This document shows, piece by piece, positions 1,770 to 13,740 of a stretch of DNA of 64,000 bases (position 1 is the first letter of the stretch; every line of letters begins with the position of its first letter). The position numbers and the translations under genes are program-made. The stretch is from Faecalibacterium sp. CAG:1138 (GTDB lineage Bacteria > Bacillota > Clostridia > Christensenellales > CAG-917), in the NCBI GenBank assembly GCA_000434675.1, contig HF988637.1, positions 106,141 through 170,140 on the forward strand. The letters run 5' to 3'. Below the pieces are notes generated by a model. That model was not told the DNA's origin, made no database searches, and saw only the letters and a program-made list of their open reading frames with translations.

Positions 1770-1955
1770 GAGTTGCAAGTAATTGCAGAAAGTAGGGGAA
1801 GAACGGTGAAAACCCGTCGCAACAGTCATTACGGTTATAGTCCGATTGCCTACCCGTTAAAGTAAGAATGTAAATTTTCTTGGGCAGTGAAGAAAAAGCA
1901 TTAAAGTCGAAAGACTATTTTTTGCGTGCTCGAAGAGTACGCAATTTTTATTTTA
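1770..1955 (+). promoter_or_regulatory. Cobalamin (B12) riboswitch, compact class-II/AdoCbl-variant-like aptamer plus terminator-type expression platform
   Basis: Aptamer core is 'GUAGGGGAAGAACGGUGAAAACCCGUCGCAACAGUCAUUACGGUUAUAGUCCGAUUGCCUAC' (1792-1853), closed by GUAGG/CCUAC. It contains the conserved GGGAA..GGUGAAAA..CC element and a B12-box-like 'AGUCCGAUUGCC'. An 8-bp hairpin GCGUGCUC-GAA-GAGUACGC (1924-1942) is followed by a U-rich tract just before the RBS AGGAGG. Confidence 0.7.
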
Positions 1956-1964
1956 GGAGGTTTT

Positions 1965-2396
1965 ATGAAAAAAGTTTTTAGTTTATTTGTTGGCGTATTA
2001 GTAATTGTGGTAGGATTGTTTTCTTTCGTAGGTTGTTCTCCCAAAGAGCCGTTAGTAATAAAAGAATCTGACACTTATATTGTAATAAACGTTTCTAATG
2101 AGCAAATGGACATTACAGATACTACGACTTTGGTTGATTATATGAATTCATTGAAGGACGATGGACAATTGACTTTTGAGATTAATAACGGAATGGTTAG
2201 TTCTGTAAATGGAATTGACAATCCAGCTGATTGGTCTAGTTGTTGGATGCTTTATACAAGCGATAGCGATAGTTCAAATACCGCATGGGGAACTATTGAG
2301 TACAATGGCAATGTTTATGGGTCTGCGGTGCTTGGTGCGGAATCTTTAATTATTAAAGATGGTTGTATGTATATTTGGGTTTTCCAATCTTTTTAG
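1965..2396 (+). CDS. Secreted lipoprotein with transcobalamin-like (DUF4430-type) C-terminal domain; putative B12-binding protein
   Basis: Signal peptide with lipobox 'SFVGC'. The C-terminus '..WMLY..G..YGSAVLGAESLIIKDGCMYIWVFQSF' fits the W-x-Y...G...DGD-x-I/Y-x-W pattern of DUF4430. It lies directly downstream of the B12 riboswitch. RBS AGGAGG precedes ATG 1965; the track start at 1926 is probably too far upstream. Confidence 0.55.
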   Translation: MKKVFSLFVGVLVIVVGLFSFVGCSPKEPLVIKESDTYIVINVSNEQMDITDTTTLVDYMNSLKDDGQLTFEINNGMVSSVNGIDNPADWSSCWMLYTSDSDSSNTAWGTIEYNGNVYGSAVLGAESLIIKDGCMYIWVFQSF

Positions 2397-2400
2397 TTAA

Positions 2401-2915
2401 ATGAATTCAGCAAAGAAAATAATATTGCCGGGAGTATTTACTGCATTACTTATCGGCGGACAATTAGCATTAAGTGGAATATCGGGTATAGAAGTTGTTA
2501 CGGTGCTTTTGTTGACGTTTGTTTACAAATATGGTATAGGGCAGGGGCTATTAGTTGCTAATTCTTTTTCATTACTTAGGTGTTTTATTTTTGGCTTTAT
2601 ACCAAACGTCATAGTATTATATTTAATTTATTATATTATAATATCTTTGTCCTTGTGTTTGGTTTTCTGGGAAAAGTATTTAGACACGAATATAGTATAA
2701 AAAAGCATATAATGGTGATTGTTGTCGCTGTTGTGATGACGGTTTTGTTTACTATAACAGATAACGTATTAACACCGTTAATATATGGTTTTACAGCGAA
2801 TACGGCTAAAGCATACTTCGTTGCTTCTTTATATACTGTAATCCCTCAAATTGTTTGTACATTTGCAACAGTATTAATAATCTTTCCGGGTTTGTTAAGA
2901 TTGTTAAAAGAATAA
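2401..2915 (+). pseudogene. Small polytopic membrane protein (ECF-transporter S-component-like, possibly CbrT-type) split by a 1-nt frameshift
   Basis: ORFs 2401..2700 and 2580..2915 are both all-TM and overlap. The hydrophobic reading continues across a frame change in the AT-rich stretch ~2630-2650. The combined length of ~170 aa with 5-6 TM segments is typical of S components. It is co-operonic with the riboswitch and lipoprotein. Confidence 0.4.
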
Positions 2916-3231
2916 ATGGCTAGGATTAAGGGTCTTAATTTTTTATTATTAAATTAATTTTTAACTAAACTAGCATAAAACCCTTGGTTAATGAAGTGTT
3001 CTGTGTTAAAACGGTTAAAATGACTAAATTGCGTTAAAGGCGTTAATATTTATTCGTAAATTACGTAATGTTGGTATAAGTTGATGTAAAATTTTTTACA
3101 AAGCGGTCAGATGTACCTAAACTTGGACATTTGACCGTTGCTATTTTTAGCGAAATTTTATATAATATATGACGTAAGTTGTCATATTTACTATGATATA
3201 ATAAGAGCAGACATTAGAAGGACTAGGAAAA

Positions 3232-5778
3232 ATGAAACAAGGGTATAGAATTATTTCAATTGAAGCGGCGGATATTTATCGTCACGAACAAGAAAACGGC
3301 GTTAGCGTTGGGTATAAAATGCCCGAAAGCAAAAGCGACGCATATTTTAAGTTGTTCAAAATCTATTTGGACAACTCGCTTGATTTGGTAGAACTTGAAA
3401 AGGCGTATACGCGCATTTGCCGTAAAAAGTTTTCTTTTCAAGATAAGAGCGAAAACGAATATACCCTTGCCGTAATAAATTTAAAGTTTAACTATACGTA
3501 CAAGCACCAAGATGGAAAGCCTATAAAAATAAAAGACTTGCGTGCGCATTTTTACGAAAATGGTTTTTATTTAGACGGCGTTCACTACGTAAGATATAAG
3601 CGTAGCGCGGGCAGTTCGCGTGAGGGTAAGTGCCTTTTTATAGACGAGCGTTTATATAAGGCAATGGATAAATGGAGTAGTTGTGGTTTGAAAGCGCAAA
3701 CTGACCTTGCTTCGTGGGAATCGTATAAGGCGTTATCCTTAAGTAGTATCAAATCAAATGTCAATATTCCGCTTGATGGAATACTTTTTGTTCCCGATTA
3801 TAAAAGCACGTTTACGGAAGAAGTAATATCAGTAGAACTTAAGGATGGCAAACTTGTAGCTGAACAAAAGCAAACGGAAATCACAAACGATATTTGGGAC
3901 GGCGAAAGCCTTTTGGACGAGAGTGTGTTTGAAAGCGGATATGCGGACAGACATATGTTACTGCTTCGTAACAAGTTCTTTAAGTCTTGTGCGTTCAGAA
4001 CGAAACTCCAAAAGTGGATAAAAGATAAAAATATTACACTTGACGACATAAAGAAAAGGGGATTTACGCTTGCAACAGACGTAAGCCAAATCGTAATGGT
4101 AACTACGCCTAACAGTTTGAAATACCTTAAATTTGCAGGTGGTCTTTCCGAGAAGAATATTCGCAAGTGGATAGAAAACGTAGATAATACTTTCGGCGTG
4201 GTGAAATGGGATAAAGACACGAGATTTTTTCACGGCGATATGGTGCAAAGCAGTTATCAACTTCTCAATACATTGGGCTTTGATAAAGCACAAGCGGAAG
4301 AATTATTAAAGCCGAGCTTTGATTATATTTCCCTTGTCCGTAACGACGTAGAATTTATGCGCTATCACTTTACCGATGCGTACGTAAGGGAGAAAGAAGA
4401 AAAAGAAAAGAAAGTTCCCGACGGACTTGCCGAGCGCGCCGACGTTATTTTTAGATTACTGTTTAGTTGTCCGTATTTTAACTGTACGGCTTTGTATGCT
4501 AATTTTAGAGATGACGTAGTAAGTGGACTTAAAAGTAATTTGCGCCGTGGACATGTTTTACTTAACGGAACGAACGCAACGTTGTTCGGTAATGGTCCTG
4601 AACTATTGAAATACATAGCAGGCGAAAGGGTAACAAGTGAATTAAAGAAAGGGCAAATATACTCTAAACGTTTTGCAAATGGCGCAAAACTTCTTTGCGT
4701 GCGCTCACCGCATATTACGATGGGCAATCTTTACTGCGTGGAAAATAATCTTAACGGCGATATTTGGAATTACTTTGATTTGGGTAAAAATATTGTGTGC
4801 GTAAACGCTATTGGAGAGAATATTCAACAGCGCCTAAACGGTTGTGATTACGACTCAGACGCTATGCTCATAACCGATGATAAGTTATTAGTAGAAGCAG
4901 CCGAGAAGCATAAAGAGAATTTCAAAGTGCCTGTTTGTAGTATTCCGTCTATGAGTAAAAACGGTCAAACCCTTGCCGAGCTTGACCACGATACGAGCGA
5001 AAATAAAATAGGTGAGATAGTAAACCTTTCGCAAAAGTTAAACAGTATTATATGGAACGAAATCCATCACGGCGCGCCCATAGAGAAAATCTTGGATATT
5101 TATAACGACGTTTGCAAACTTGCCGTTTTATCGGGATTGGAAATAGATAAGGCAAAGCGCGCTTACGACAACGTGAACGTCGGGAAAGAGCTTTCCGCCT
5201 TGCGTAAAAAGTATAATCGTCCTGCTCCTATTTTCTTTAAGGAGATAGACGAAAAAGGAAAAGAAAACGAGTACGCTTTTTACGATACTGCGATGGATTA
5301 TATTTATCAAGCCGTTAAAAAATTCAACTTCGTAAAATGCAAAAGGAAAAGAGTTAATTATATGCCTATCTCTTGGGTTGTGGGAGAAAATACAACTTCT
5401 GACAATGCTACCGATTATAGGCATAGAGATAAAATCATTGAAATTTGTGAAGAGTACAGAAAGAAAATTGACCGTTTGTATATGGAACTTCGTGTAGTGG
5501 ATAACCAAGAAAAAGAAGTTCTTTACGAAAGGATAGAAGAAGAAAAAGCCGAAAGAGATAAGCAAGTTTCCAAATGGCTAACGAGTAGAAACATTCTTAT
5601 ATTCGTGGCTCGTCATTATGAAAAGAATCGTCCGTCCGATTGGCGGATTTACGCGCCGATAGTTAATTCTCATCACTTTAAGGATTTTATGCTTAAAGGC
5701 GGTTCTCCCATAGGTTTCGTTGAAGAAAATGAAAATGGAAGTATTGTTGTATATGGCAAGAAATTCGCAAGAAAATGA
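3232..5778 (+). CDS. Putative single-subunit two-barrel RNA polymerase (YonO / eukaryotic-RdRP-like)
   Basis: 848 aa. 'LLCVRSPHITMGNLYCV' is followed ~40 aa later by 'LNGCDYDSDAMLITDD'. This is the h-R-x-P-x-h-x-x-G-[DN] strand plus the D-b-D-x-D metal loop of DPBB polymerases (beta' NADFDGD; RdRP DbDGD). The size matches the SPbeta YonO class. RBS GGACTAGGAAAA precedes ATG 3232. Confidence 0.5.
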   Translation: MKQGYRIISIEAADIYRHEQENGVSVGYKMPESKSDAYFKLFKIYLDNSLDLVELEKAYTRICRKKFSFQDKSENEYTLAVINLKFNYTYKHQDGKPIKIKDLRAHFYENGFYLDGVHYVRYKRSAGSSREGKCLFIDERLYKAMDKWSSCGLKAQTDLASWESYKALSLSSIKSNVNIPLDGILFVPDYKSTFTEEVISVELKDGKLVAEQKQTEITNDIWDGESLLDESVFESGYADRHMLLLRNKFFKSCAFRTKLQKWIKDKNITLDDIKKRGFTLATDVSQIVMVTTPNSLKYLKFAGGLSEKNIRKWIENVDNTFGVVKWDKDTRFFHGDMVQSSYQLLNTLGFDKAQAEELLKPSFDYISLVRNDVEFMRYHFTDAYVREKEEKEKKVPDGLAERADVIFRLLFSCPYFNCTALYANFRDDVVSGLKSNLRRGHVLLNGTNATLFGNGPELLKYIAGERVTSELKKGQIYSKRFANGAKLLCVRSPHITMGNLYCVENNLNGDIWNYFDLGKNIVCVNAIGENIQQRLNGCDYDSDAMLITDDKLLVEAAEKHKENFKVPVCSIPSMSKNGQTLAELDHDTSENKIGEIVNLSQKLNSIIWNEIHHGAPIEKILDIYNDVCKLAVLSGLEIDKAKRAYDNVNVGKELSALRKKYNRPAPIFFKEIDEKGKENEYAFYDTAMDYIYQAVKKFNFVKCKRKRVNYMPISWVVGENTTSDNATDYRHRDKIIEICEEYRKKIDRLYMELRVVDNQEKEVLYERIEEEKAERDKQVSKWLTSRNILIFVARHYEKNRPSDWRIYAPIVNSHHFKDFMLKGGSPIGFVEENENGSIVVYGKKFARK

Positions 5779-8630: not shown

Positions 8631-8906
8631 TTGAATTATAAGGAATTAAATTTAAGAGAAGAAAAATTAAATAATGAAGTGGAAAATCAAGGTTGCTACA
8701 AAGCCCAAAACGTGGAGAAAATCGACAAGTCAAAAATAAATATGGAGGTGTTAAATAAGATTATCGCGTTTAAGATGTTAGAGATTATGCGTGATAACGA
8801 AATGATTGACGAGCGAGAATACGCCAAAATCGAAAAGAAGCGTTCTCAGTTTGGGGAAAGTGTAGTAAAGCAAAATAAATTATTTAAAGGAGGCGATTTA
8901 ACTTGA
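8631..8906 (+). CDS. Hypothetical protein upstream of and overlapping the serine recombinase start
   Basis: 91-aa ORF with TTG start after RBS AAGGAGAA. It overlaps the next gene by 4 nt. No motif recognised. Confidence 0.35.
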   Translation: MNYKELNLREEKLNNEVENQGCYKAQNVEKIDKSKINMEVLNKIIAFKMLEIMRDNEMIDEREYAKIEKKRSQFGESVVKQNKLFKGGDLT

Positions 8907-10678
8907 TTGAAAACGGAATGGTAATGCCCACTAACGTTAATTTTAACAGGGCAAGGCAAAGAAGAGTGGTTTTCTACGGACGAGTAAGCACGGAACACGA
9001 AGCGCAACTTTCGGCGTTAGAAAATCAGATGCAATGGTACGACGACGTGGCGGATAGAAATCCTAATTGGTATGTTATTAAGAAATATATCGACGAAGGG
9101 ATTACGGGAACGCAAGCGAAAAAGCGACCTGCATTTTTAAGGATGATACAAGACGCTAAACAAAAAAAGTTCGATTTAATCGTAACGAGAGAAGTGTGTA
9201 GATTTGCAAGAAACACGGTTGATACGCTTGTTGTTACGAGAGAGTTAAAAGAGTACGGCATCGAAGTCTATTTTGTGGAAGACAACATTTGGACGATGGA
9301 CGGAGACGGAGAATTAAGACTCACGATTATGGCAACGCTTGCGCAAGAAGAAAGCAGAAAAATTTCCGAACGTGTTCGAGCAGGGCAGAAAATCAGTAGA
9401 GACAAAGGCGTTTTGTATGGAAGTGGTAATATTCTTGGTTATGATAGGGACAAGGCAAAAGGAACTTACGTAATCAACGAAGAACAAGCCGAAACGGTGC
9501 GTATGATTTACGATATGTATTCGGCAGGCAAAGGAATATCTCAAATTCGTGACGAGATGATACGACTTAAAAGAAAAGATAGTTCGGGGTTAGTTAGATG
9601 GGAGAATGCGAAAGTATCACGAGTACTACATAACTCAACCTATAAAGGCTATCCTGCCTACTTAAAATCACGAAGAAATAATTTCCTTGACCAAAAAATT
9701 ATTTTAAACCGTGACGAAGATACCTATCTTTACGTAAAAGGCGATTTTGAGCCGATTATATCCGAAGAGCAATGGGATAGATGCAAGCAAATTAGAGAGC
9801 AACGTACAAGGTATAGAAAATTTCGCACGGAAAACGGGGAAGTTCTTCACAAAACGGGCATTCACGAAAGTAGCGACGTTTGGACGAAGAAATTAAAATG
9901 TAGATGCGGTTATAAAATGCGCAAAAACAAATGGCGTAAGAATAAAAACGGCGAAGTCACCTATGGATATAAATGCTATAACCAACTTAACTATGGTTCT
10001 AAGGATATTAGAATTGAAGCAGGGATTGACGATTCAAAAAGTTGTAATCTTAGAGAAATATGCGATTGGAAATTAGAAATGATGGCAAGGCATATTTTTG
10101 CAGGGTTATGGGGTAACAAGAAAGATATTCTAAATAACGTGTCCTCTTTATATCAAATCGGTGTGTTTCAAGAATATCAAAAAGCGGCGGAAATTAAGGC
10201 AACGGTTGATAAAGAGATAGCAAAGTTAGACGAAAAACTAAAACGCTTAACTCGTATGCGCTTGGAAGACGAAATTCCAAAAGAGTCTTACTTAGAACTC
10301 AAAAAGGAAATTGAGCAAGAGAAAATCGAACTTATAAACAAAAGGCGTATTCTTGATGCGGGGATGGTTCCAAACGAAGACGGGGAAGAAGAGCCTGCAA
10401 AAAAGGTGGAAGACTTCTTGTTGTCGAAAATGGATTTTACCGAACACTACGTAGATAGAGAAGTGATTAAACAGTTCGTTCATACCATTGTTCCCGTAAC
10501 GGAAACGTGCTTTAATTGGTATATGAACTTTGACTTAATTGACGTGCCAAACGACATGAAAAAGTTAGTATGGGAATTTACGATTGATTATAAATCGGCA
10601 AGGTCTTATAGAAAGGAAAAGAACGGTATGCTTAGACCAAATCAATGGCAAGATTTAACGGTAAAAGTGTTTATATAA
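8903..10678 (+). CDS. Large serine recombinase (TnpX/phage-integrase type)
   Basis: Resolvase catalytic domain: 'VVFYGRVSTEHEAQ' (catalytic Ser) and 'DLIVTREVCRFARN'. A recombinase domain follows, then the Cys-rich 'KCRCGYKMRKNKW...YKCYN' zinc ribbon and a C-terminal coiled coil. Total 591 aa. Confidence 0.9.
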   Translation: MIENGMVMPTNVNFNRARQRRVVFYGRVSTEHEAQLSALENQMQWYDDVADRNPNWYVIKKYIDEGITGTQAKKRPAFLRMIQDAKQKKFDLIVTREVCRFARNTVDTLVVTRELKEYGIEVYFVEDNIWTMDGDGELRLTIMATLAQEESRKISERVRAGQKISRDKGVLYGSGNILGYDRDKAKGTYVINEEQAETVRMIYDMYSAGKGISQIRDEMIRLKRKDSSGLVRWENAKVSRVLHNSTYKGYPAYLKSRRNNFLDQKIILNRDEDTYLYVKGDFEPIISEEQWDRCKQIREQRTRYRKFRTENGEVLHKTGIHESSDVWTKKLKCRCGYKMRKNKWRKNKNGEVTYGYKCYNQLNYGSKDIRIEAGIDDSKSCNLREICDWKLEMMARHIFAGLWGNKKDILNNVSSLYQIGVFQEYQKAAEIKATVDKEIAKLDEKLKRLTRMRLEDEIPKESYLELKKEIEQEKIELINKRRILDAGMVPNEDGEEEPAKKVEDFLLSKMDFTEHYVDREVIKQFVHTIVPVTETCFNWYMNFDLIDVPNDMKKLVWEFTIDYKSARSYRKEKNGMLRPNQWQDLTVKVFI

Positions 10679-10905
10679 CATAAGAATGATAAGGGAAAAA
10701 CTTAGAAAAAATTAAAACTGAATACAACCGCTACGGCGGATAAATATATGGATAATAGTATCGTGATAACAGCCTAAAACTAAACGGGCAATTTGTCGCT
10801 AAGGGCAAAAGATAACGAGCACAGGCGAACATCCGTAATCCGAGGGCGACCAAATAAGTCCGAAATCGGCTAAAAAACGCATAATTTATACTAAAACGCA
10901 CGAAA

Positions 10906-10940
10906 AGCAGTCATTCTTGCGAAAGAGTGACTGCTTTTTT
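10906..10940 (+). terminator. Rho-independent terminator downstream of the serine recombinase
   Basis: AGCAGTCA (10906-10913) pairs with TGACTGCT (10928-10935), followed by a T-run. Confidence 0.6.
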
Positions 10941-11061
10941 CTCTGCATTTAGTTCGTCAAAACTCGAAAAATACCCTAAAAAACGGGGGTGGTCAGAAAA
11001 ATGTTACACTTTCCCGTATATACGGATACAGGTAAAAGAGGGCGATAAAAGGAGCGTTTTT

Positions 11062-11616
11062 ATGGTAAAATATATACTTATGATAGAATATCTTTTGAAA
11101 AACAACAACTATTCTCAAGTTGCTACGCTATGCGGATGTTCGCGAATGACGGTATGGCGGGTCTTGCAGCGCATTGATTTTTTGAGTATTTCGCTTGACG
11201 AGATAAAGGAAATGAAGGAAGAAGAACTTCGCTTTTTACTGTTTCCCGAACGGATAAAAAAAGGTAACGGTTATTTGATACCCGACTTCAAATGGGAAGA
11301 ATTTCAAATGAGGAAACATCAATCTTCACTTCGGTTATGTTGGCGAAGATATTGCAAACGCGCTTTGAAACAAAATCTTAAAGCGTATAGTTGGGCAAGC
11401 TTTGTTTTCTTCTATGGTCAATTTCGTAAGCCGTGTTCTGATGAAGATGATCCAAAAGATAAAGTGAGAAACAAGTTGAAACATTATAATTTAATGCTGT
11501 CATATTGCAATCCAAACGGCGAGCAATATCAAAAGTTAAAGAAAGAAAAGGAAGAGTGGCTTAAATCACTACACCTTGACGAAAGCAAAATAGTAGACAA
11601 AACCTATGAGTTATAG
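11062..11616 (+). pseudogene. IS21-family transposase (IstA) N-terminal HTH fragment, lacking the DDE domain
   Basis: 'SQVATLCGCSRMTVWRVL', then '..LFPER.....YLIPDFKWEEFQMRKHQSSLRLCWRRY......AYSWASFVFFY', matches the IstA N-terminal layout (HTH, then LFP..PD...L.LLW.EY...YSYS.F). The ORF ends ~60 aa later with no catalytic domain and no istB. Confidence 0.5.
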
Positions 11617-11744
11617 GATAGTCAATAAATAAAAATGGAATTTATATATACAAAACGATAATAGAAAACACCATTTAAATGATTGCATAAACTCGGATAT
11701 TCGTAAAAGAACATTCGACTTTGTAATTTAATATAAGAAACATA

Positions 11745-11780: not shown

Positions 11781-11856
11781 TGCCGTTTCGAGGGGTGATT
11801 TCCTATTTACGGTGAGAAAAATTATAATAATAACAGTAAATCGAAAGGAGTTTTCA

Positions 11857-12791
11857 ATGAAATACAAAGATTGGTTGGACGTATGGTTTGCGAACTACAT
11901 AGAGCCTTCGTCTAAAACGAAAACGTGCGAAAGATATTCGGAGATTATCGAAAAGCACTTGAAGGTAAAGTTGGGCGAGTACGAGCTTGAAGAACTGTCG
12001 CCCATCGTCATACAGAAGTATATTACCGAACTTATGCAGTCGGGCAATCTGACAACCGGAAAGGGGTTAGCGGCTAATTCCGTAAACAGGATTATTACGG
12101 TTATTCAGAATTCTCTGAAACTTGCGTATACGCTCGGAGAGCTAAAAGAGTACACGACAGACAAAATCAGACTACCGAAAACGAAAGAGAAAGAAGTATC
12201 CTGTTTTTCGCTTGCCGAACAGAAGAAGATAGAGCAGGCGGCGTTATCGAGTAAGAAGCGTAAATTCATCGGGATCGTGATTTGTCTTTATTCGGGTTGC
12301 GTATCGGAGAATTGCTTGCGCTTACTTGGGCAGATATTGATTTCACGAAAGGAACGCTTGCGGTGAACAAAACCTGCCACGACGGGCGAGATGAAAACGG
12401 GAATCTCTGCCGGATCACGGACTTGCCGAAAACAACTTCTTCCAAAAGAATGATTCCGCTTCCGAAGCAGTTGCTTCCCGTTCTGAAAGAATATAAGAGA
12501 AAAAGCATTTCGGAGTATGTTGTGGAATCGGAAAAGGGCGAGCCGCCTACGGTGCGATCTTATCAGAGAACCTTTGAACTTTTGCAAAAGCGTTTGCATA
12601 TTGAGCGTAAAGGTTTCCACTCGCTTCGGCATACGTTTGCTACACGCGCTTTGGAATGCGGGATGGACGTGAAAACATTGGCGGAGATATTGGGGCATAA
12701 AAACGCCACGGTAACGCTGAACAGATACGCCCATTCGCTTATGGAACACAAGCAGGATATGATGAATAAGCTCGGCAAAATTTTCAACTAA
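11857..12791 (+). pseudogene. Tyrosine site-specific recombinase (integrase/invertase family) interrupted by a 1-nt frameshift near 12297
   Basis: The N-terminal SAM-like domain (ORF 11857..12366) reads '..GIVICLYSG'. The text then continues in the next frame as 'LRIGELLALTWADIDF...' (ORF ..12791). The catalytic residues are in 'HSLRHTFATRALECG...LGHKNATVTLNRYAH'. The junction is at 'tcgggttgcg'. Confidence 0.8.
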
Positions 12792-12793
12792 AA

Positions 12794-12999
12794 AAGCCGT
12801 CTGTTAAAGCAATAGGTGAACAAAACCATAGACTTCGGACACCTATCGAGAGTATTTACGAATTTTATTATTTTTCTGACCGCGCGAAAGCACTGAACAT
12901 CGACTTTACTACCGTTTTATGGTATAATAAACATAATATTTGAGCCGTCTATTGCTTTAATAGGCGAACAAAATTCTGCGAGATAATTCACCTATCGGG
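12794..12999 (+). repeat. Module 1: ~57-nt structured repeat units R1 (12794-12850) and R2 (12942-12999) bracketing a promoter; candidate invertible promoter
   Basis: R1 core is CCGTCTGTT-AAAGC-AATAGGTG (12797-12818). R2 core is CCGTCTATT-GCTTT-AATAGGCG (12945-12966). The central pentamers are reverse complements, which gives a perfect 12-bp inverted repeat TTAAAGCAATAG (12804-12815 vs 12949-12960). Confidence 0.6.
12900..12928 (+). promoter_or_regulatory. Extended -10 promoter inside module 1, pointing at the SLOG gene
   Basis: TCGACT (12900-12905), a 17-nt spacer, then TGgTATAAT (12920-12928). Confidence 0.55.
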
Positions 13000-13009
13000 A
13001 GTCATTGAA

Positions 13010-13480
13010 TTGGATATTTTTCGGGTTTCATTTATAGGTCATAGAGTAGTGTACGAGTACCGGCAAGTCGAAGAAGAACTTGACGAAGTAATCGAATTAC
13101 TGCACCGTAAATATGGGTTTATAGACTTTAACGTGGGACGAAACGGCGAGTTTGACGAACTTGCCACACAAGCCGTCAGACGATTCCGAAGAGAATGGGA
13201 AGAGTGGTGCGAGCTTACGCTTGTCGAACCGTATCCCGTGGCGAACTTGGATATTATAGAGAAGTCTTATGATAGCGTTATTATCCCGACCGATAGGAAA
13301 TGCCATTACAAAGCGGCGATAGGAGAACGCAACAAATGGCTTGCCGAGAATTGCGATATGATGGTCGTCTATATCAAGCGTGATTATGGCGGTGCGTATA
13401 AATGCTATAAGTACGCACAGGAACTTGGTGTGCCGATTATGAATATAGCGGATAATATCAAAAATAATTACGAAAAGTAA
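13010..13480 (+). CDS. SLOG-superfamily / DUF1273-like (YpsA-type) protein
   Basis: 156 aa with TTG start after GGGAG. 'VSFIGHR' (compare the xTGHR start of DUF1273 proteins), 'VGRNGEFDELATQAV', '..ERNKWLAENCDMMVVYI...GGAYKCYKYAQELGVPIMNI' follow the Rossmann-like YpsA/DprA-LOG layout. Confidence 0.5.
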   Translation: MDIFRVSFIGHRVVYEYRQVEEELDEVIELLHRKYGFIDFNVGRNGEFDELATQAVRRFRREWEEWCELTLVEPYPVANLDIIEKSYDSVIIPTDRKCHYKAAIGERNKWLAENCDMMVVYIKRDYGGAYKCYKYAQELGVPIMNIADNIKNNYEK

Positions 13481-13535
13481 AAGTAGCGAAAGGTCGGATT
13501 TTTCAACCTTTTTCGCTTGGATAATGTTAGTTAAA

Positions 13536-13740
13536 AAGCCGTCTATTCGCATAATAGGCGAACAATCGAAAGAGTTGTGTTCACCTATCGAAAAGATTTA
13601 TGGAAAAACAAGAGATTTTCACTTGCGCAAAAAGGCTTTATATTGACCTTTCTTCTTTTTTATGGTATAATATAACATAGATTAAAGCCGCCTATTATGC
13701 GAATAGGCGAACAAAATAAAGTGTGTTTGTTCGTCTATCC
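13536..13740 (+). repeat. Module 2: repeat units R3 (13536-13592) and R4 (13685-13740) bracketing the hsdM promoter; candidate invertible promoter
   Basis: R3 core is CCGTCTATT-CGCAT-AATAGGCG (13539-13560). R4 core is CCGCCTATT-ATGCG-AATAGGCG (13688-13709). The pentamers are reverse complements, which gives a perfect 15-bp inverted repeat CTATTCGCATAATAG (13543-13557 vs 13692-13706). Confidence 0.6.
13643..13671 (+). promoter_or_regulatory. Near-consensus promoter inside module 2, pointing at hsdM
   Basis: TTGACC (13643-13648), a 17-nt spacer, then TATAAT (13666-13671), with TG at 13663-13664. Confidence 0.65.

Follow-up and report, generated by a model that had tools for sequence, protein, structure and literature searches.

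Extra copies of a recombinase-binding motif beside a core recombination site are known from the DR1 and DR2 repeats of the IntI1 attI site and from the third repeat of FRT. In the TnpI recombination site of Tn4430 (IRS) the motifs DR1 and DR2 bind regulatory subunits that determine the reaction's geometry and its direction (PMC2847244). The cwpV switch of Clostridioides difficile, which is operated by RecV, is OFF by default, with about 5% of the cells ON (PMC2784873). In gut Clostridia, inverton group 139 is linked to tyrosine invertase group 35 in the PhaseFinderDC survey (PMC11892184). The DNA analysed here, called the window, is a stretch of 64,000 nucleotides (nt) from Faecalibacterium sp. 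CAG:1138 (contig HF988637.1, positions 106,141 to 170,140), numbered from its first letter. It contains a promoter switch, module 1, between the gene of a tyrosine recombinase and an open reading frame (ORF) for a protein with a predicted SLOG fold. Module 1 is probably (at a rough probability of 0.7) an invertible promoter, or inverton, which is turned by the tyrosine recombinase and sets the YpsA-like SLOG gene ON or OFF, with a third arm beside its recombination sites serving as an accessory half-site. The parts of module 1 are the following.

12796..12821, + strand: site 1 (core of unit R1), with L arm GCCGTCTGT (12796-12804), overlap TAAAGCA (12805-12811) and R arm ATAGGTGAAC (12812-12821)
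12805..12959, no strand: invertible segment from overlap to overlap, reverse-complemented in all related loci
12838..12846, + strand: third half-site of unit R1 (GACACCTAT), inside the invertible segment, 24 nt after AATAG
12900..12928, + strand: predicted promoter TCGACT-17-TATAAT with TG extension, directed at the SLOG gene in the window (ON)
12944..12969, + strand: site 2 (core of unit R2), with L arm GCCGTCTAT (12944-12952), overlap TGCTTTA (12953-12959) and R arm ATAGGCGAAC (12960-12969)
12987..12995, + strand: third half-site of unit R2 (TTCACCTAT), 25 nt after AATAG, at the right edge of the conserved cassette
12997..13012, + strand: Shine-Dalgarno sequence GGGAG(T) and TTG start codon; GGGAGG in all relatives

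The two sites are in inverted orientation, have palindromic arms and lie 148 bp apart. Because the overlap of site 2 (TGCTTTA) is the reverse complement of that of site 1 (TAAAGCA), strand exchange would invert the promoter segment. The units R1 to R4 are direct repeats of about 60 nt, and the centres of their palindrome CTATT-N5-AATAG are reverse-complemented within each pair (AAAGC/GCTTT and CGCAT/ATGCG). An alignment of sites across families gave arms (G)TTC-R-Y-CTAT around a 7-bp overlap T-N5-A, and the adjacent 326-amino-acid Xer-like recombinase would bind such half-sites flanking the overlap T-NNNNN-A. R-type arms read AATAG-RYGAAC (GTTCRCCTAT); L-type arms read AATAG-ACGGC or GCGAC (GCCGTCTRT) and lie beside the recombinase stop codon and an A-run. 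A weak L arm of the lox66/lox71 kind was considered as a source of direction bias and lost ground, since the L arms still conform to the half-site consensus YC-R-Y-CTATT over their inner 9 nt (CCGTCTATT) and a lower affinity of the L arm cannot be argued from the sequence.

The original prediction had placed R1 3 nt past the recombinase stop codon, an inverted repeat (TTAAAGCAATAG, 12804-12815, and CTATTGCTTTAA, 12949-12960) around the promoter at 12900-12928, and GGGAG at 12997-13001 before a TTG start. These and all its other coordinates agree with the sequence; the stop codon is at 12789-12791, the repeat is exact, and the TTG start lies 8 nt past GGGAG, at 13010. The SLOG ORF starts 50 nt past site 2. 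Between 11600 and 14000 the module 1 promoter is the second-best sigma-70-like match, the top two being the promoters of module 1 and of its sister switch, module 2. By our own arithmetic about 0.8 single 12-nt inverted repeats within 200 nt are expected in 64 kb, so that the repeat alone is little evidence, and a lone imperfect pairing of 9 nt is likewise unremarkable as a chance event. The composite of R arm and third arm (AATAGGYGAAC-N17-20-CRYCTAT) is not due to chance, as it occurs four times in the window with 0.00 expected. These four are the sole copies in the 1.49-Mb genome. In a scan of 108 genomes of the same family the site was not found in the 107 others, and annotated plasmid and phage records gave no match.

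Two scans of species-representative genomes yielded 16 related loci from metagenome-assembled genomes of Clostridia with 92-97% identity. In all related loci carrying the segment, BLAST aligned window positions 12798/12804 to 12960/12966 inverted relative to both flanks. The right half of site 1 is replaced there by the inverted L arm of site 2, AATAGACGGC, and the OFF junctions read AAAAAAGCCGTCTGTTAAAGCAATAGACGGC, in which an L arm and an inverted L arm flank the overlap, and TTGTTCACCTATTGCTTTAATAGGCGAAC, in which an inverted R arm precedes the overlap and an R arm follows it. Strand exchange inside the cores of the L-overlap-R sites of the window is predicted to yield exactly this reciprocal pair. 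The ON state has two L-overlap-R hybrid sites, and the OFF state one L-overlap-L' and one R'-overlap-R site. All 16 genome loci were OFF. Among metagenome contigs the ON junction had no match, and the general site gave 52 matches, of which 51 were real and all of these OFF. In this comparison between genomes the window is the only ON copy and the other 67 are OFF, 67 being an upper count of independent assemblies since the genome and metagenome collections partly overlap. The sequence comparison shows the inversion with its reciprocal junctions. The proposed switch upstream of a gene with a YpsA/SLOG fold was borne out in that every related copy found has the opposite orientation; far from never being seen, the inverted segment is the norm.

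A second switch of the same design follows the SLOG gene.

13533-13740, + strand: module 2, the sister switch before hsdM
13543-13557 (centre CGCAT) and 13692-13706 (ATGCG), + strand: cores of module 2
13582-13588 and 13732-13738, + strand: third half-sites of module 2
13643-13671, + strand: promoter of module 2

Module 2 has the same arms as module 1 and another overlap. It is ON in four loci (L132, L007, L253 and L257) and OFF in about 17 others, and module 1 is OFF in L132, L253 and L257, where module 2 is ON. The two modules therefore flip independently of each other, as expected if strand exchange needs overlap identity. Since module 2 shares the arms and differs in the overlap, one recombinase could run two independent switches. 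In locus L220 (site 2 at 10835, minus strand) site 2 of module 1 is fused to the right flank of R4, with hsdM directly after it; the SLOG gene and module 2 are missing, and it looks as though the direct repeats R2 and R4 had recombined with each other.

About 40 further loci, whose recombinase homologues share 56-74% amino acid identity, have a cassette like that of module 1 with centres specific to the family. In these the first site begins 11-20 nt past the recombinase stop codon, and most are OFF. Among members of the switch family L168, L170 and L172 were ON, and L148, L155, L161, L169, L190 and L193 were OFF. Six contigs (L129, L146, L165, L166, L173 and L174) break off within or at a recombination site right after the recombinase gene, the end of L129 falling inside the site 2 overlap. 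Such ends are the pattern expected of an assembly fork at a polymorphic inversion and indirectly suggest both orientations in one sample.

The recombinase gene of the window itself is damaged.

11812..12791, + strand: tyrosine recombinase gene (Xer-like, two domains), broken by the loss of 1 nt at about 12296/12297, shortly ahead of the catalytic Arg (GLRIGE)
11812-12366 and 12282-12791, + strand: the same ORF in two frames, with the stop codon at 12789-12791

Compared with the intact 326-amino-acid genes of L075 and L133 the window lacks one base (TCGGG-TTGCG versus TCGGGATTGCG), and the Pfam matches PF14659 (2.2e-12) and PF00589 (5.5e-27) lie in two different frames. The intact relatives have the catalytic motifs of tyrosine recombinases (GLRIGE, HSLRHT, LGH and NRYAH), and the gene is intact (326 amino acids) in 49 of 56 related loci. 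As the recombinase is frameshifted, the switch is probably frozen ON. When the relatives were re-inverted in silico and 47 distinct sequences were compared over about 260 nt, the window had only two private substitutions, neither found in any of the 47: T to C at 12901, which changes the -35 box from TTGACT (all 47 relatives) to TCGACT, and G to T at 13002, which changes the Shine-Dalgarno sequence from GGGAGG to GGGAGT. Both weaken expression signals; the promoter matches the consensus at 10 of 12 positions in the window and at 11 of 12 in the relatives. The chance that both of two random substitutions fall within the roughly 23 signal bases is about 0.008 by our own arithmetic. Frameshift and substitutions, as they appear from this comparison, fit a lineage that was frozen ON and had its expression turned down.

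The genome has a single intact paralogue of the recombinase (62% identity; contig C25, locus L264, about 1911-3250), with a promoter switch of its own that is OFF. That switch has the half-site GTGCATCAA, the overlap CAAAATA/TATTTTG, an additional half-site past the outer arm at a distance of about 16 bp and further pairs of half-sites inside the segment. Rescue of the broken recombinase in trans by this paralogue was considered and is unlikely because its half-site differs from those of module 1.

In the relatives the promoter (TTGACT-17-TATAAT) is directed at the recombinase gene. The proposal that inversion aims the promoter antisense into this gene therefore holds for the geometry but is otherwise not supported: on that strand of the flipped state site 1 turns into a perfect palindrome with U6 behind it, a terminator-like hairpin some 10 nt past the predicted start. 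On the minus strand of the OFF state the L-overlap-L' palindrome forms a 9-bp stem and an inner stem, followed by UUUUUU (-13.3 kcal/mol), whereas the ON state has only a weak hairpin. With the site 1 hairpin and U6 in its path, the OFF promoter probably does not read into the recombinase gene and would fire into a terminator-like dead end. On the plus strand the OFF palindrome lies right after the recombinase stop codon (-16.2 kcal/mol, z -5.3) and is broken up in the ON state; the A-run between stop codon and site 1 recurs in other families. Read-through RNA across OFF site 2 folds at -42.9 kcal/mol (z -5.8), with ACUCUCGAUAGGUG of the inverted R1 unit pairing with CACCUAUCGGGAG and covering the Shine-Dalgarno sequence, so that any RNA reaching the SLOG gene could have its Shine-Dalgarno sequence buried in a hairpin. 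Termination, this occlusion and a bias towards OFF are predictions from the modelled folds and site structure; the OFF-state hairpins have precedents in the cwpV terminator and in the orientational control of fimE (PMC2784873). Occlusion as a general feature was rejected, as it applies to module 1 only; the ribosome-binding site (RBS) of module 2 lies about 40 nt further on.

A wider interpretation is offered tentatively and is less probable than not: a self-insulating, direction-biased cassette that combines arm asymmetry and third half-sites, a terminator palindrome, an anti-Shine-Dalgarno element, swappable cargo and orthogonal overlaps. The ON and OFF synapses would then differ through these arms and half-sites: the ON state would hold two hybrid sites with one accessory subunit each, and the OFF state a bare L-L' palindrome and an R'-R palindrome with two accessory subunits, which would give a strong default-OFF bias. 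The L-L' palindrome would act as a two-way terminator and the inverted R1 unit as the anti-Shine-Dalgarno element. The cassette would end exactly at the third arm, where it would be joined to varied cargo, and different overlaps would allow a single recombinase to operate several switches independently.

Of 69 oriented sites 27 have the motif of the third arm, C-R-Y-CTA-[TA], next to them, in every case 24-25 nt past AATAG and next to an R-type, never an L-type, arm. In the opposite orientation, used as a control, it had 2 matches at random offsets. Its likeness to the core arms stops at ...CTAT, exactly where the overlap of a core site begins, and it would therefore be a bare binding element. 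OFF copies have a third arm on either side of the R'-overlap-R site, in symmetrical positions. The conservation and fixed spacing, as judged by comparing sequences, make it most likely that the third arm is an accessory half-site which would dock an extra recombinase subunit and so shape the synapse or bias the direction. In L108/L153 there are two isolated R'-overlap-R palindromes (at 2050 and 2920 of L108), each flanked by third half-sites, with unrelated centres, ACGAC and ACAAT; no partner site for these palindromes was found.

In six contigs, which carry five different right flanks, homology among the copies breaks off within a few bases past the third arm, so that this point is an edge of the switch cassette and not part of the leader of a particular gene. 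In L216, L227, L234, L237, L247 and L202 homology ends at window positions 12994-13000, and several of these have no nearby gene start. Candidates for this break are a boundary of cargo or element, a deletion, or recombinase-mediated breakage at the half-site. A self-mobile cassette of 1.25 kb comprising recombinase and switch was considered and rejected, since its left breakpoint at 11743 is an alternative left flank shared by L234, L237 and L247 and does not reflect separate insertion events.

The original prediction had read the third arm as an RNA pairing partner. In this alternative an RNA leader element would form mutually exclusive hairpins, L-R or R-third arm, and tune SLOG translation or mRNA stability. 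The pairing does exist: in R2, TTCACCTAT (12987-12995) and ATAGGCGAA (12960-12968) are Watson-Crick complementary at 8 of 9 positions, the other being a C.A mismatch, and R1, R3 and R4 can form 7 to 13 bp. The stem partners also vary jointly between families (CACCTAT, CATCTAT, GCATCAA) at constant loop size. R2 lies downstream of the predicted start site and thus, as had been proposed, in the leader of the ON transcript according to the promoter prediction. The predicted ON leader (12935-13025) has a minimum free energy (MFE) of -15.4 kcal/mol and z +0.26 against shuffles, however, and its MFE fold pairs the L arm with the R arm in the core hairpin and leaves the third arm unpaired. In a set of 17 units drawn from diverged families, 85.6% of the cells paired between R arm and third arm; shuffling the partners gave 84.9%, and 192 of 500 shuffles reached or exceeded the observed value. 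The covariation score was reached in 82 of 500 shuffles; there was no covariation beyond column composition. Neither covariation nor unusual stability, the marks of a leader RNA, was thus seen. Two copies of one and the same consensus, not pairwise compensation, therefore account for the complementarity. The central C.A mismatch of R2 and R3 is kept in all 47 distinct relatives, and outside the leader and the switch transcript the element recurs in R1 and R3, which precede the promoters, and flanks OFF site 2 on either side. No Rfam family matched the switch; the search gave a cobalamin riboswitch in another part of the window and, within the region, a plant miRNA artefact below threshold.

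The contact of the third arm with the RBS, also part of the prediction, is real in module 1 (1 nt) and recurs in L161 (0 nt, next to GGAGG), which would suit an RNA element. Elsewhere it fails: L155 has a gap of about 17 nt and module 2 one of about 40 nt, and over all copies the distance ranges from 0 to over 40 nt. The contact would only reflect a cargo gene joined directly to the right edge of the cassette. On balance the RNA leader element is unlikely.

Several points weigh against a reversible inverton with accessory half-sites. Recombinase docking at the third arm is putative, and the complementarity of R arm and third arm fits an RNA hairpin or a DNA cruciform equally. The absent covariation is weak evidence, as only two positions vary. 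The inner third half-site is lost in L155, L161 and L141 and L169 has none at all, which means that the third half-site is not essential for inversion. The stem of the minus-strand terminator contains an A.C mismatch and was missed by a simple terminator scan, and the frameshift in the recombinase could be an assembly error. The evidence for both orientations of module 1 comes from between genomes and not from within one clone or sample, and its active reversibility would follow from what is seen in a single lineage, in module 2 and in other members of the family. Not one of the 67 other copies is ON.

This last count, with the recombinase intact in most of those copies, would suit a module 1 that is normally fixed OFF, the window being a single rare or accidental inversion or a misassembly. 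The two junctions of the window are nevertheless exactly the reciprocal pair that exchange within the 15-bp cores would yield, and the core repeat of only 12-15 nt is probably too short for an assembler to flip the segment without supporting reads. Among relatives module 2, whose arms are the same, occurs both ON and OFF, and L129 stops inside the site 2 overlap. The private -35 and Shine-Dalgarno substitutions fit a lineage living ON, and default-OFF switches such as cwpV (PMC2784873) would likewise always assemble OFF. We consider a fixed OFF state improbable for these reasons. That the third arm is instead an operator for another DNA-binding protein, such as the helix-turn-helix (HTH) protein encoded at 10927-11616, or a cargo-exchange breakpoint or element end is very improbable: homology does end 0-5 nt past ...CTAT in the six contigs with five right flanks, and the boundary between arm and overlap after CTAT is the expected cut position of a tyrosine recombinase, but in each family the third arm has the sequence of the recombinase core arms and changes with them, the HTH gene is unlinked in most relatives (homology to the window begins at 11743 or 11660 in most loci), and the new right flanks contain no partner arm.

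An invertible promoter with accessory half-sites, the reading preferred here, leaves the nature of the switched gene to be considered. The 156-amino-acid product of the ORF at 13010-13480 had no direct Pfam/HMM family match. Three of 15 homologues matched PF06908 (YpsA), at best with 3.2e-7. The best PDB match of an AF2 model (pLDDT 88) was Bacillus subtilis YpsA (2nx2; E 9.4e-7, TM 0.77), followed by DprA, LOG and ThsA-SLOG. Judged by the modelled fold, the product is SLOG/YpsA-like. The ORF is intact in the window and has two private amino acid changes. Premature stops or truncations of the SLOG ORF were seen in 7 of 40 distinct relatives, which suggests decay of the gene either in some copies that are permanently OFF or at two mosaic breakpoints (13379 and 13465). 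Overexpression of YpsA blocks cell division in B. subtilis (PMC6459960, PMC7376506), which would make a default-OFF switch sensible.

The other features of the locus are listed below.

8903-10678, + strand: large serine recombinase gene
10927-11616, + strand: HTH protein gene
12794-12999, + strand: module 1 (promoter switch)
13010-13480, + strand: 156-amino-acid SLOG/YpsA-like ORF, under the control of module 1
after module 2, + strand: hsdM, hsdS, an unannotated ORF and hsdR, in that order

An AdoCbl-II (cobalamin) riboswitch at 1780-1859 (46.9 bits), upstream of an ORF at 1926-2396, is unrelated to the switch.

A complete Type I restriction operon and a YpsA-like gene, each behind its own flip switch, are thus carried by a mobile element of gut Clostridia. 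One recombinase with two switches kept apart by their overlap sequences would be a natural counterpart of heterospecific lox sites. The locus provides a precise site model, in which arms of 9-10 bp surround an overlap of 7 bp and a third half-site lies at a distance of 24-25 bp. It also provides what looks like a natural locked-ON allele. The weakening of its -35 box and RBS hints at a cost of making the SLOG protein all the time; such a cost fits the division block caused by YpsA in B. subtilis. The value of the locus lies in the anatomy of the switch and in a testable role of the accessory half-site, the general phenomenon being known already.

Module 1 is an inverton of the fimS type, and invertons of gut Clostridia with an adjacent tyrosine recombinase have been published (PMC11892184). 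Both those of group 139 and other PhaseFinder invertible promoters resemble module 1 in being intergenic segments of about 200 bp in gut Clostridia next to a tyrosine-type recombinase. Their flipping was shown by reads, and the likeness to module 1 is one of description. The third half-site, the asymmetry of L and R arms and the built-in terminator are not described for group 139 in the consulted passages of PMC11892184. We have not found an earlier description of a third half-site at a fixed distance, of the L/R asymmetry, of a site that doubles as a terminator or of two orthogonal switches served by one enzyme, all of which are computational inferences here. No evidence of IHF- or Lrp-type accessory sites was seen, and no search aimed at them was made.

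The locus resembles fimS of E. coli, with FimB and FimE, in having a short promoter segment between inverted sites beside its own tyrosine recombinase gene. In both systems the half-sites differ on the two sides of the core, so that the composition of the sites changes with orientation, and an orientation-dependent terminator after the recombinase gene, known from the orientational control of fimE (PMC2784873), is predicted here. Unlike fimS, the locus has one Xer-like recombinase of 326 amino acids in place of the short FimB/FimE pair, extra half-sites at a fixed 24-25 bp, a terminator-like hairpin made from a recombination site, and two overlaps for one enzyme. With TnpI and its IRS it shares extra copies of a recombinase-binding motif beside a two-arm core site. 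Such systems resolve or integrate DNA, whereas here a promoter would be inverted, and there is one extra motif per R arm, inverted relative to the arm and about 16 bp away, with a putative role. In cwpV, orientation decides whether a stem-loop and U-tract form at the junction of repeat and inverted segment (PMC2784873), and the same is predicted here. The promoter of cwpV is not part of the segment, and what the terminator blocks is the transcript of the gene itself, whereas here the promoter is inside and the terminator-like hairpin would stop the transcripts of the flipped promoter and of the recombinase gene.

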